Below, in pieces: positions 6,932-9,270 of a stretch of 48,005 nucleotides of DNA. The notes beneath the pieces are model-generated. The model ran no database searches and was not told where the DNA came from. It saw only the letters and a list, made by a program, of their open reading frames with translations. The stretch lies in contig CANKHC010000001.1 of the NCBI GenBank assembly GCA_947481595.1, positions 1 through 48,005 of the forward strand, written 5' to 3'. The first letter of the stretch is position 1. Each line of letters opens with the position of its first letter. The stretch comes from Fidelibacterota bacterium (lineage in GTDB: Bacteria > Pseudomonadota > Alphaproteobacteria > Rhodospirillales > Rhodospirillaceae). A program made the position numbers and the translations under genes.

Positions 6932-7921
6932 ATGAACCCTGACGTTTCGCTCATACATGTGAATGACACCGTGCCGGGACTTGCGCGCAAGCGTAATGGA
7001 TCGGGTTTCATTTATCTCGACACCAAGGGCCGTCGCGTAAACGCCGCGGCGACGCTCGCACGCATCCGTGCGCTGGCGATCCCGCCGGCCTGGCGTCATG
7101 TCTGGATCAGCACCAGTGCGCGCGCTCATTTGCAAGCCACCGGCCGTGATGCACGCGGGCGCAAACAATTCCGCTATCACGCGGCGTTCCGTGCGGCGCA
7201 AGACGAGCACAAGTTCGCCCACCTCGCGGCCTTCGCGGACGTGCTGCCGAAGATTCGCCGTGCGGTCGCGCGCGATCTGCGCCTCCCCGGCCTGCCGCGC
7301 GCGAAGGTATTGGCGACGGTCGTGCATCTGCTCGAGACCACTTTGATCCGTGTCGGCAACGCCGACTACGCCCGCGCCAATAAAAGCTTCGGCCTCACGA
7401 CATTGCGTGACGCCCATGTCGCGGTGAACGGCAGCGCGCTCAAATTTCATTTCAAGGGAAAGAGCGGCAAGGTCTGGCGTCTGGCCGTCACCGACCGGCG
7501 TGTCGCGAAAACCGTGCGGGCCTGCCAGGAGTTGCCCGGCCAGCATCTCTTTCAATACCGCGACGACGATGGCGTGCGCCACGCCATCAGCTCAAACGAC
7601 GTCAACGCTTACTTGCGCGCGGTCAGCGGACGCGACATCACCGCCAAGGAATTCCGCACCTGGGCGGGAACGGTTCTGTGTGCCGCTGCGCTCAAGGCAG
7701 GCGCGCCGCCGGCCAGCGAAGCCGCCGCCAATCGCACGATCAAAGCCGCGGTGGCCGCCGTCGCCGAACGCCTCGGCAATACCGTGGCGATCTGCCGAAA
7801 ATGCTACGTGCACCCGGCAGTGATCGACGCTTACAGCGCCAGCCGGCGCCTTCCCCGCCGCCGCATCCCGGGCCTGCGCGCCGACGAGGCCGCGGTCCTC
7901 ACCCTTCTGCGCGCCGCGTAG
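6932..7921 (+). CDS. DNA topoisomerase IB (bacterial/poxvirus type)
   Basis: The N-terminus (GFIYLDTKGRRV...IRALAIPPAWRHVWIS...HLQATGRDARGRKQFRYH) and the catalytic-Tyr region (ICRKCYVHP) match bacterial TopIB. Length is 329 aa. Confidence 0.9.
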   Translation: MNPDVSLIHVNDTVPGLARKRNGSGFIYLDTKGRRVNAAATLARIRALAIPPAWRHVWISTSARAHLQATGRDARGRKQFRYHAAFRAAQDEHKFAHLAAFADVLPKIRRAVARDLRLPGLPRAKVLATVVHLLETTLIRVGNADYARANKSFGLTTLRDAHVAVNGSALKFHFKGKSGKVWRLAVTDRRVAKTVRACQELPGQHLFQYRDDDGVRHAISSNDVNAYLRAVSGRDITAKEFRTWAGTVLCAAALKAGAPPASEAAANRTIKAAVAAVAERLGNTVAICRKCYVHPAVIDAYSASRRLPRRRIPGLRADEAAVLTLLRAA

Positions 7922-7972
7922 CCCTCCACATTCTTGTGATCACGTTTTGTACGTGACAATGTCCGGCCAAAT

Positions 7973-7987
7973 GTTCTACATTTGTTC
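7973..7987 (+). promoter_or_regulatory. Candidate alphaproteobacterial LexA (SOS) box GTTC-N7-GTTC
   Basis: aaatGTTCtacatttGTTCtgt lies in an AT-rich 101-nt spacer, 36 nt upstream of the DUF763 ATG (8023). It overlaps a TTCTGT-A-ACAGAA palindrome (7985-7997). Confidence 0.5.
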
Positions 7988-8022
7988 TGTAACAGAATCT
8001 CATGATTTCAATAGGTTGTTAC

Positions 8023-9270
8023 ATGACACCCCCATCTTTCGGGCGCGCCGGCAGCGCTGATTTGCCCCTTCACGGCGGCTTTGTCCCCAAGTGGCTGGCC
8101 GAGCGCATGGCCAGGCTGGGCGGGGTCATGACCCAGGCCATCATCCACCACTACGGCCGCGACGAGTTCCTGCGCCGGCTTTCCCACCCCTTCTGGTTCC
8201 AGTCCTTCGGCGCCGTCATGGGCATGGACTGGCACTCCTCGGGCATCACCACATCCGTCATCGGCGCGCTCAAACGCGGACTGGCGCCGCTCAAGGACGA
8301 ACTCGGCCTGCATGTCTGCGGCGGGCGCGGCAGTCATTCGCGCAGCACGCCGGCTGAACTCATCACCCTCGGCGAGCGCAAGGGCCTCGACGGCGCCGGC
8401 CTCGCGCGCACCAGCCGCTTGGTGGCCAAAGTCGACAGCGCCGCCGTGCAGGACGGCTTCCAGCTTTATATCCACGGCTTCATCGTCACCGATGACGGTA
8501 AATGGTGTGTCGTCCAGCAGGGCATGAACGCCGACGCGCGCCAGGCGCGGCGCTATCACTGGCTCAGCGAAGGCATCCGCGATTTTGTTGATCAGCCGCA
8601 CCAAGCCATCGAAGGCCGCGCGGGTGCCGACATCCTCAACCTCACCGATGCCCGCGCGGCCGTCTCGCGCGCGCGGCAATTGGAACTGCTTACCAGCGAA
8701 GGCCCCGACCGCATCGTTGCCGAGATCGCACTGATCGATAAACACGGCGCCCAGCAGCCGACCCTGCCGCACCTCATGCTGCCCGATCATCACGACGTGC
8801 ATGCGGGCGACGTGGTGCTGCGCCGCCTGCACGCCAACCTTGCTGCTGCGGCGGAGCAAGGCCCAAAAGATTTCGCCGATCTTCTGCTGGTGCCCGGCGT
8901 GGGCCCGCGCACGGTGCGTGCGTTGTCGCTCGTCACCGAAGTGCTGCACGGCGCCCCCTGCCGCTTCTCCGATCCCGCGCGCTTCTCACTGGCGCATGGC
9001 GGCAAGGACGGCCATCCGTACCCCGTGCCGGTGAAGATCATGGACGAAACCATCCGCGTGTTGAAGACCGCCGTGCGCAAAGCCAAACTCGGGCGCGAAG
9101 AAGTCCTGGCCGCGCTAAAACGTCTCGACGATCAGGCCCGCGCCCTCGAAGCGCACGCCAGCGGCCCATCGTTCGAAGCTTTCATCGCCACGGAGCGCGC
9201 GCAATCACATCTTTATGGTGGACGGACGGTAACGGGATGGGCCGCGCCGCCCTTAGCCCGCAGCGCTTAA
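8023..9270 (+). CDS. DUF763-family protein with a C-terminal helix-hairpin-helix-like motif
   Basis: GSADLPLHGGFVPKWLAERMARLG...FWFQSFGAVMGMDWHSSGITTSV is the conserved DUF763 N-terminus as I recall it. LLLVPGVGPRTVRAL (about 8881-8925) is HhH-like. The start was moved to the ATG at 8023 (MTPPSFGR...). Confidence 0.8.
   Translation: MTPPSFGRAGSADLPLHGGFVPKWLAERMARLGGVMTQAIIHHYGRDEFLRRLSHPFWFQSFGAVMGMDWHSSGITTSVIGALKRGLAPLKDELGLHVCGGRGSHSRSTPAELITLGERKGLDGAGLARTSRLVAKVDSAAVQDGFQLYIHGFIVTDDGKWCVVQQGMNADARQARRYHWLSEGIRDFVDQPHQAIEGRAGADILNLTDARAAVSRARQLELLTSEGPDRIVAEIALIDKHGAQQPTLPHLMLPDHHDVHAGDVVLRRLHANLAAAAEQGPKDFADLLLVPGVGPRTVRALSLVTEVLHGAPCRFSDPARFSLAHGGKDGHPYPVPVKIMDETIRVLKTAVRKAKLGREEVLAALKRLDDQARALEAHASGPSFEAFIATERAQSHLYGGRTVTGWAAPPLARSA

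Follow-up and report, generated by a model that had tools for sequence, protein, structure and literature searches.

A probable LexA operator precedes a DUF763 gene next to a bacterial type IB topoisomerase gene in an uncultured alphaproteobacterium

The LexA operator of Alphaproteobacteria is the direct repeat GTTC-N7-GTTC (GAAC-N7-GAAC on the other strand), and the corresponding SOS regulon in Rhodobacter, Sinorhizobium and Caulobacter comprises lexA, recA, uvrA, imuA-imuB-dnaE2 and dinB (PMC3323433). The window analysed here, a 48,005-nucleotide stretch of DNA from the metagenome-assembled genome (MAG) of an alphaproteobacterium, carries a repeat of this type in front of a gene of the uncharacterised family DUF763. 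Like the described operators, this site has the exact core and a 7-nt AT-rich spacer and lies over a candidate promoter; in contrast to the genes of the described regulon, DUF763 is not a reported member, and its box is patchy, being found at 22 of 79 loci. In some SOS operons, such as E. coli dinB-yafNOP and the imuA-imuB-dnaE2 cassette, a translesion polymerase is encoded together with accessory genes. DUF763 resembles such accessory genes in Sphingomonas and Stakelama, where it rides with the translesion polymerase, but it is unrelated to YafN/O/P, ImuA and ImuB, and in the window it stands alone behind its own operator. The gene upstream of it encodes a type IB topoisomerase (TopIB) that shares with the Deinococcus radiodurans enzyme (2F4Q/3M4A) both Pfam domains and the catalytic Arg-Lys-Arg-Asn-Tyr set. 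The window protein is an ordinary TopIB, unusual just in its adjacency to DUF763, which is confined to its own species cluster. Literature searches with DUF763, PF05559, COG1415 and TopIB plus LexA turned up no earlier mention of a link and no report of DUF763 as an SOS gene.

The spacer between topIB and DUF763 is 101 nt long, with a GC content of 39.6% against 63% for the genome. It contains the exact repeat on the forward strand at positions 7973–7987 (GTTCTACATTTGTTC, with TACATTT between the two GTTC half-sites; extended form AATGTTCTACATTTGTTCTGT), ending 36 nt before the DUF763 ATG at 8023. The original prediction was built on this short AT-rich spacer and its box, and each of these features is present. 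A consensus scan gave a sigma-70-like promoter candidate on the same strand at 7953–7982, consisting of a −35 hexamer GTGACA (7953–7958), an 18-nt spacer and a −10 hexamer TACATT (7977–7982); the scan returned two sites against 0.3 expected in shuffles, using a consensus of the E. coli type, from which alphaproteobacterial promoters differ. The −10-like hexamer sits within the N7 spacer of the box, and a −10 element inside a LexA box is the usual geometry of repression by occlusion. Immediately past the topIB stop codon, a palindrome read from the sequence (TCACG-N7-CGTGA, 7940–7956) overlaps the −35-like hexamer and may serve as a second operator or as a weak terminator stem. Between the two genes, the consensus scan gave no canonical terminator. 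The box is the sole exact match to GTTC-N7-GTTC in the window, where shuffling gives an expectation of 1.74, so that on its own it is not significant, in agreement with the caution that came with the prediction that about one chance match to an 8-nt motif is expected and that the box alone is not decisive. It gains significance only through genome-wide and comparative tests.

The host MAG is 85% complete, and its 2.84-Mb genome contains 51 exact boxes, most of them inside genes. AT-rich boxes of the TGTTCT type mark six targets, lying 29–45 nt upstream of the start codon or across it. These are imuA-imuB (ImuA_translesion, 2e-10; IMS), mmcB (PF06319, 1.7e-45), a radical-SAM gene of the PA0069 family (NF033668, 7e-160), nrdJ, a gene for a 32-aa membrane peptide, and DUF763. 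We then built a LexA matrix from 13 other sites, leaving out the DUF763 box, and ran the matrix scan that had been proposed as a check. The extended 21-nt DUF763 box scored 24.4 bits and ranked fifth of about 5.7 million positions genome-wide, beside the boxes of imuA-imuB, mmcB and the PA0069-family radical-SAM gene, and below this top group the scores drop cleanly from 20.8 to 17.8 bits. A regex search of the MAG found none of lexA, recA and uvrA, and a Pfam search of it with LexA_DNA_bind gave just a sub-threshold LexA-like match, whereas each of the five congeners searched has LexA. We attribute the missing genes to the 85% completeness of the assembly; congeners were therefore used, and the repressor is deduced from them. 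An exact box precedes lexA in all five congeners and in two genomes of the same order, and the congener lexA operators read AATGTTCTACTTTAGTTC, almost identical to the DUF763 box.

The box is also kept at related loci. The sister population L106/L107, in which DUF763 is 88% and TopIB 78% identical, retains the palindrome, the −35 element and the box; the surrounding spacer has diverged, as has the sequence beyond the box. In the congener G004, an exact box precedes DUF763 in a different context, downstream of an AlkB-like gene. Among 79 other DUF763 loci, out of roughly 600 in Alphaproteobacteria, 18 have an exact box within 250 nt upstream of the gene; these 18 belong to Sphingomonas, Allosphingosinicella, Caulobacteraceae, Sinorhizobium/Ensifer, Rhizobium, Aliirhizobium, Acidocella, Terripilifer and MAGs. 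Four further loci have a box before dinB of a dinB-DUF763 operon. Cultured strains with a box include Sphingomonas oligophenolica JCM 12082, Rhizobium deserti SPY-1 and Ensifer sp. LCM 4579. Control upstream regions from the same loci were boxed in 5 of 353 cases, all of them dinB or alkB-like partners, and unrelated controls in 0 of 348 (Fisher p ~1e-14 for 18/79 against 0/348). The other 57 loci (72%), including all those of Mesorhizobium, Microvirga and Bradyrhizobium, have no box, so that LexA control would be patchy rather than family-wide. Applied to these other taxa, the genus-trained matrix gave 6 of 79 loci at or above 12 bits against 0 of 353 controls; because it is too specific to the genus's own spacer, the exact core was used as a taxon-neutral measure.

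The DUF763 gene (8023–9270, forward strand) encodes 415 aa and matches PF05559 at 1.4e-123 (412.6 bits against a cut-off of 35.5) over the whole profile, positions 1–319 of 319. We placed its start at ATG 8023 rather than ATG 8002, since homologues start at the former and the upstream ATG is out of frame in the sister population. The family comprises 3650 matching cluster representatives, and a family search gave at least 8000 scored candidates, all at E ≤ 0.001, the best 120 of those scored having about 70% identity. Sphingomonas relatives and rhizobia are about 70% identical, and the most distant aligned relatives 35–45%. Invariant residues in the family alignment are G100, D138, Q166, R176, R177 and P332, and many His, Asp and Ser residues are near-invariant. 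It occurs widely among archaea (PMC554113). For DUF763 and PF05559, no mention was found in the literature beyond one 2005 domain-census paper, and for COG1415 none. In genome G073, an open frame of 1243 aa that includes DUF763 was considered as a fusion and treated as a high-GC artefact, because a second domain is absent and a long opposite-strand ORF overlaps it.

An AlphaFold2 model of DUF763 (pLDDT 78, pTM 0.80) was compared with known folds by Foldseek, a comparison with nuclease and glycosylase folds having been proposed as a check; neither fold was found. The best Foldseek matches were at E 0.25 and TM 0.13 in the PDB and at E 0.11 in BFVD, none of them meaningful; a PDB sequence search returned no match and an NCBIfam search nothing meaningful. 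On these searches, DUF763 has no recognisable catalytic fold, and no structural relative, solved or predicted, was found in the PDB or BFVD. The helix-hairpin-helix (HhH)-like segment that had been pointed out in the protein is present at residues 287–301 (LLLVPGVGPRTVRAL; 8881–8925, forward strand). Its match to Pfam HHH is sub-threshold (E 0.021, 15.1 bits against a cut-off of 24); it is kept across the family as GVGPxTxRALAL, and the model, with mostly high confidence, places helices at 284–288 and 295–309 around a loop. The segment recalls HhH-GPD glycosylases (Nth, MutY, AlkA) in its hairpin motif L-PGVG-x-x-T-x-x-A-L, followed after about 25 residues by a near-invariant Asp-Pro. However, DUF763 gave no HhH-GPD match in Pfam, Foldseek paired it with none of the glycosylase structures of the PDB library, and an hhalign comparison with the host genome's own MutY aligns just 26 columns, those of the HhH, at a probability of 8%; membership in the HhH-GPD superfamily was ruled out on these results.

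The recurrent neighbours of DUF763 encode an AlkB-like 2OG-Fe(II) dioxygenase, DinB (Pol IV) and Ku. Among 80 loci, an AlkB-like gene lies within 4 kb at 21, mostly 20–80 nt away on the same strand; at four, dinB adjoins DUF763 so closely that stop and start codons overlap, and at seven Ku is nearby. Sphingomonas and Stakelama have a LexA-boxed dinB-DUF763-alkB-like operon in which stop and start codons overlap. Together with the HhH element, these repair-gene neighbours make a DNA-related role for DUF763 plausible.

The topIB gene named in the prediction (6932–7921, forward strand) is intact. Its 329-aa product matches Topoisom_I (PF01028, 2.7e-35) and Top1B_N_bact (PF21338, 4e-24). In an alignment with D. 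radiodurans TopIB (2F4Q; E 1.5e-62), the columns taken as the catalytic pentad, which is Arg-Lys-Arg-Asn/His-Tyr in enzymes of this type, are occupied by Arg140, the Lys of FKGKSG, the Arg of EFRTW, the Asn of LGNT and Tyr292, and from its sequence the enzyme is apparently intact and active. No LexA-type box lies upstream of the window topIB, even with one mismatch allowed, and none is found at the TopIB genes of six congeners. The uncultured host is an organism of freshwater metagenomes, and a search for RNA runs of it returned none. The TopIB-DUF763 arrangement is present in two independent ENA assemblies and in eight metagenome runs from two studies, and is therefore not an assembly artefact.

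Beyond this species cluster the two genes are separate. The adjacency is kept only in the sister population, and the expectation that it would be enriched across genomes was not borne out, with no TopIB gene within 4 kb of DUF763 at any of 80 loci elsewhere. In G004, the sole congener with both genes, the two are found on separate contigs and DUF763 is still boxed; where both occur on one contig, they are at least 50 kb apart. Comparison of the window neighbours with congener TopIB loci showed no conserved synteny and no sign of a DUF763 insertion or deletion. At the genome level, TopIB is present in 43 of 50 DUF763-bearing genomes. In a class-wide sample, which is underpowered and lineage-confounded, it occurs in 3/3 of them against 20/247 (8%), and in Rhizobiaceae in 16/17 against 94/184 (p = 3e-4). 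Ku, an unrelated accessory repair gene used as a control, is likewise present in 16 of the 17, and the one exception is the same genome; the co-occurrence is thus to be put down to lineage, genome size or a common set of repair genes, and the proposed specific association falls away. The difference is not significant in Sphingomonadaceae (4/4 against a background of 67%, p = 0.2) or in the genus sample (2/2, p = 0.07). Conversely, 94 of the 110 TopIB-bearing genomes in the Rhizobiaceae sample and 98 of the 102 in the Sphingomonadaceae sample have no DUF763. Among control genomes, Sulfolobus has DUF763 and gives no match to the bacterial-type TopIB model, and Deinococcus has TopIB without DUF763.

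The site and its conservation make it very probable that LexA uses this box as an operator, and hence probable that DUF763 is damage-inducible. The explanation that we consider likely is that a functional LexA operator covers the DUF763 −10 element, that the gene encodes an inducible DNA-binding repair or tolerance protein, and that topIB is independent. Binding by LexA, induction by damage and whatever biochemical activity DUF763 has are our inferences. In undamaged cells, LexA would occlude the DUF763 promoter; upon DNA damage, RecA-stimulated self-cleavage of LexA would derepress DUF763 along with imuA-imuB, mmcB and the PA0069-type radical-SAM gene. The protein would bind DNA via its HhH element, and the invariant Asp, Gln and Arg-Arg, along with near-invariant His, Ser and Lys, make it probable that it is an enzyme. 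It would act in damage repair or tolerance. Its recurrent gene neighbours, an AlkB-like 2OG-Fe(II) dioxygenase, DinB and Ku, make lesions of the alkylation or base-damage kind its likeliest target. The topIB gene would be an intact, independently regulated neighbour, in a juxtaposition confined to its own species cluster.

The original prediction had cast DUF763 as a damage-inducible partner or processing factor of TopIB. Its inducible half stands as probable on the computed evidence for the LexA box; the partnership does not, given 0/80 adjacent loci, the split in G004, boxless TopIB genes and the identical Ku control. A functional pair, in which damage-inducible DUF763 handles TopIB-DNA adducts or intermediates as a bacterial analogue of the Tdp1 type, would account for the same-strand adjacency without an intervening terminator, for its retention in a diverged sister population and for the near-universal TopIB of DUF763-bearing genomes (43/50, 3/3, 16/17, 2/2). 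It is nonetheless highly improbable in view of genes lying on different contigs or at least 50 kb apart elsewhere, the same 16/17 for Ku with no significance in Sphingomonadaceae or the genus, the many TopIB-bearing genomes that have no DUF763, Sulfolobus and Deinococcus with one gene each, and the TopIB genes without a LexA box. Topoisomerase and DUF763 genes appear to adjoin here by local accident, not as partners.

A fortuitous box in an AT-rich promoter, leaving DUF763 outside LexA regulation here, would fit a core expected 1.7 times per window by chance, the 51 exact cores genome-wide that fall mostly inside genes, the failure to find lexA in the 85%-complete assembly and the 72% of other DUF763 loci that are boxless. 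We regard it as very unlikely, since a 21-nt site scored by a matrix that excludes it ranks fifth of about 5.7 million in a group otherwise made up of SOS genes, is kept in the sister population and G004, and has exact counterparts at 18/79 DUF763 loci against 0/348 controls. DUF763 could also be SOS-controlled in some Alphaproteobacteria and serve a role other than DNA repair, acting on RNA or nucleotides or as a recruited archaeal-type housekeeping protein. AlkB-family enzymes repair RNA as well, and SOS regulons hold non-repair genes, here the boxed nrdJ and small membrane peptide; no nuclease or glycosylase fold was found, and because the family is widespread in archaea (PMC554113) its core function could lie outside classical repair. 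Against this reading, which we hold to be unlikely, stand the links of DUF763 to DinB, Ku and AlkB-like proteins, DNA-specific functions that recur in differing orders, and the conserved HhH element. On balance, DUF763 is probably a DNA-repair factor.

For bacterial TopIB, the window locus does not illuminate the physiological role: its adjacency to DUF763 is a local matter, and the co-occurrence across genomes is non-specific. DUF763 is, on sequence grounds, a predicted new and unpublished member of the SOS regulon. Its family ranks among the larger orphan families that are strongly conserved, and the literature hardly mentions it. The conserved LexA operator provides regulatory evidence, independent of gene neighbourhood, that ties the family to the DNA-damage response, and with AlkB-like, DinB and Ku proteins as partners, the substrates to be considered come down to a testable set. 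We tentatively suggest, as a possibility somewhat short of even, that DUF763 is a hitherto overlooked DNA-repair enzyme whose fold is not represented in the PDB, conserved from archaea to bacteria, repeatedly placed under LexA control in Alphaproteobacteria and working with AlkB-like proteins, DinB and, in some lineages, Ku on alkylation-type, abasic or blocked-end lesions. If so, the boxed stand-alone gene of the window would be a clean example of the SOS regulation of DUF763.

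The source MAG is a freshwater genome of 2.84 Mb in 220 contigs (63% GC, ~85% complete), and its contig C1 is the window. On the + strand, 6932–7921 is topIB, a gene for a bacterial type IB topoisomerase of 329 aa (Pfam Topoisom_I 2.7e-35, Top1B_N_bact 4e-24). In an alignment with the Deinococcus radiodurans enzyme (2F4Q; 1.5e-62), the catalytic columns hold Arg, Lys, Arg, Asn and Tyr. topIB is followed by a 101-nt spacer (39.6% GC) and the DUF763 gene (8023–9270, + strand, 415 aa), whose product matches PF05559 over the whole profile (1.4e-123). The start was assigned to the ATG at 8023, because homologues start at the equivalent position and the upstream ATG is out of frame in a sister population. 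The GTTC-N7-GTTC box GTTCTACATTTGTTC occupies 7973–7987, 36 nt 5’ of this ATG, and the helix-hairpin-helix (HhH)-like segment LLLVPGVGPRTVRAL spans DUF763 residues 287–301. Re-examination of the sequence confirmed all elements of the observation behind the original prediction. The topIB-spacer-DUF763 arrangement is no chimera, since two independent ENA assemblies show it, as do eight metagenome runs belonging to two studies. Directly 3’ of the topIB stop, a palindrome (TCACG-N7-CGTGA, 7940–7956) overlaps the −35-like hexamer of the candidate DUF763 promoter. The sister population (L106/L107) has kept this palindrome, which may serve as a terminator stem or bind a second regulator.

Exact cores were counted in the whole MAG, giving 51, of which a few have the extended AT-rich form TGTTCT...TTGTTCT. 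These lie directly 5’ of imuA-imuB (ImuA_translesion 2e-10; IMS family), an mmcB-like gene (PF06319, 1.7e-45), a PA0069-family radical-SAM gene (NF033668, 7e-160), nrdJ, a 32-aa hydrophobic peptide with two boxes, and DUF763. The Caulobacter LexA regulon includes imuAB and mmcB, and PA0069 is a LexA-regulon member in Pseudomonas aeruginosa. The genome was then scanned, as the original prediction had proposed, with a LexA matrix built from 13 sites (five from the MAG and eight lexA operators of relatives), leaving out the DUF763 site. The DUF763 box scored 24.4 bits and ranked fifth in the genome, within a top-scoring group clearly set apart from all other sites (scores drop from 20.8 to 17.8 bits). 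Whole-genome search of the 85%-complete MAG found no lexA, recA or uvrA, though the genome has at least six LexA-type operators; these genes are presumably missing owing to assembly gaps. In all five congeners searched, lexA is present with an exact box upstream, reading AATGTTCTACTTTAGTTC, almost the same as the DUF763 site.

The class II ribonucleotide reductase gene nrdJ is preceded at 29 nt by the box GTTCTGTTTTGGTTC (L111:2337–2351, corresponding to MAG contig C116:9536–9550), which scored 22.9 bits as a site outside the matrix training set; ribonucleotide reductase may be SOS-regulated in the source organism. Elsewhere, two exact boxes, GTTCCGCATTTGTTC and GAACATAATATGAAC, lie 13 nt apart and are followed by the 32-aa hydrophobic ORF MSASHFLKETSALLGIFVTLYLWSLLALALQS (L112:1085–1247, contig C38:14084–14246), which resembles the small, SOS-induced membrane inhibitors of cell division of the SidA type.

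The box was also found at DUF763 in other genomes. In the sister population, where DUF763 and TopIB are 88% and 78% identical to those of the window, the spacer has diverged except for the −35-like GTGACA and the box. The congener G004 carries DUF763 elsewhere in its genome, behind an AlkB-like gene, with an exact box between the AlkB-like stop and the DUF763 ATG. Other species provided 79 usable DUF763 loci, and 18 of these have an exact box within 250 nt upstream; their sources are Sphingomonas, Allosphingosinicella, Caulobacteraceae, Sinorhizobium/Ensifer, Rhizobium, Aliirhizobium, Acidocella, Terripilifer and several MAGs. Four further loci have the box 5’ of dinB in dinB-DUF763 operons. 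The control set, 353 regions upstream of other genes at these loci, yielded five boxes, all of which belong to these dinB genes and to a single divergent alkB-like partner, leaving 0/348 for unrelated regions (Fisher p ~1e-14 for DUF763 versus controls). A non-functional box is thus quite unlikely: the single exact match in the window, against 1.74 in shuffles, is at chance level, bearing out the earlier caution that the box alone is not decisive, but the genome-wide, genus and cross-genome tests together place it above chance.

The commonest DUF763 neighbour is an AlkB-like 2OG-Fe(II) dioxygenase (PF13532; 21/80 loci), seen in Mesorhizobium, Bradyrhizobium, Sphingomonas and G004, mostly 20–80 nt off on the same strand and in an order that varies by group. 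DinB (IMS, IMS_C, IMS_HHH) is encoded immediately 5’ of DUF763 in four of the 80, with overlapping stop and start. Ku occurs in seven, mostly within ~2 kb, four of them Mesorhizobium, and was seen in genome searches too. At least one of the three is near DUF763 in 24/80 loci, versus none for TopIB. In Stakelama and Sphingomonas (L028:2847–5811, L037:2853–5811), a dinB-DUF763-alkB-like operon with overlapping stop/start codons has a LexA box before dinB. In several Mesorhizobium genomes (L017, L019, L021, L060), Ku lies ~2 kb upstream of DUF763 with an AlkB-like gene between, which gives the impression of a small island of accessory DNA-repair genes.

The original prediction had cast DUF763 as a partner or processing factor of TopIB, and co-occurrence of the two is indeed high. 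TopIB was found in 43/50 DUF763-bearing genomes; in an even class-wide sample it was present in 3/3 genomes with DUF763 versus 20/247 without, and in a Rhizobiaceae sample in 16/17 versus 94/184 (p = 3e-4). This association is unspecific, however: the control gene Ku scored the same 16/17 in Rhizobiaceae, with the identical exception genome; Rhizobiaceae genomes bearing DUF763 have a median of ~6 Mb, while the 20 listed TopIB-lacking genomes are all ≤5.4 Mb; and in Sphingomonadaceae TopIB is common anyway (102/151), making the 4/4 overlap with DUF763 unremarkable (p = 0.2). What lies behind the co-occurrence is therefore lineage, genome size and an accessory repair toolkit common to these genomes.

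The genomic arrangement likewise speaks against the proposed partnership. No TopIB homologue lies within 4 kb of DUF763 in any of 80 loci, G004 has the two genes on different contigs, and no LexA box was found upstream of topIB in the MAG or six congeners. No synteny around TopIB is common to the window and congeners. Within the genus, TopIB occurs in 7/25 genomes and DUF763 in 2/25, and DUF763 is missing from most TopIB-bearing genomes; among control genomes, Sulfolobus has DUF763 and no match to the bacterial-type TopIB model, and Deinococcus has TopIB without DUF763. A functional partnership is accordingly very improbable, and the adjacency is a juxtaposition confined to the source species cluster.

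The DUF763 family is widespread in archaea (PMC554113). The best 120 homologues of the window protein are ~70% identical, all 8000 scored candidates fall at E ≤ 0.001, and among 3650 cluster representatives the most distant aligned relatives are 35–45% identical. Residues G100, D138, Q166, R176, R177 and P332 are invariant, and H17, D69, W70, S72, S73, T76, T77, H151, H179, H193, K328 and D329 nearly so, a pattern that, judged from the alignment, looks enzymatic; any catalytic activity is putative. Comparison with PDB sequences gave no match. A confident AlphaFold2 model (pLDDT 78, pTM 0.80) predicts an N-terminal α/β domain and a helical C-terminal part with an HhH stretch, the hairpin being a sub-threshold Pfam HHH match. 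The structure comparison suggested earlier gave no meaningful Foldseek match in PDB (best E 0.25, TM 0.13) or BFVD (best E 0.11). Assignment as an HhH-GPD glycosylase was rejected, since in profile comparison the alignment to the HhH of the MAG’s own MutY covers just 26 columns. In a literature search, ‘DUF763’ and ‘PF05559’ were named only in a 2005 domain census, and ‘COG1415’ was not found.

A consensus scan placed a −10-like TACATT (7977–7982) within the box and paired it with GTGACA at −35; by this E. coli-type consensus only, the geometry is the usual one for repression by occlusion. We infer that LexA would bind 7973–7987 and block the DUF763 promoter, and that DNA damage would lead to LexA cleavage and derepression of DUF763 as well as of imuAB, mmcB and the PA0069-type gene. 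The DUF763 protein may bind DNA via its HhH element and work in repair or tolerance, its target probably being alkylation or base-damage intermediates, because its partners are AlkB-like, DinB and Ku. We consider LexA control and a repair or tolerance role for DUF763 likely. The operator type and TopIB are already known; what is new is the inclusion of DUF763 in the alphaproteobacterial LexA regulon, in a dinB/alkB-like/Ku context. The analysis removes a misleading lead on TopIB function, and the SOS assignment offers a concrete, testable entry point to an ancient orphan family whose fold is new.
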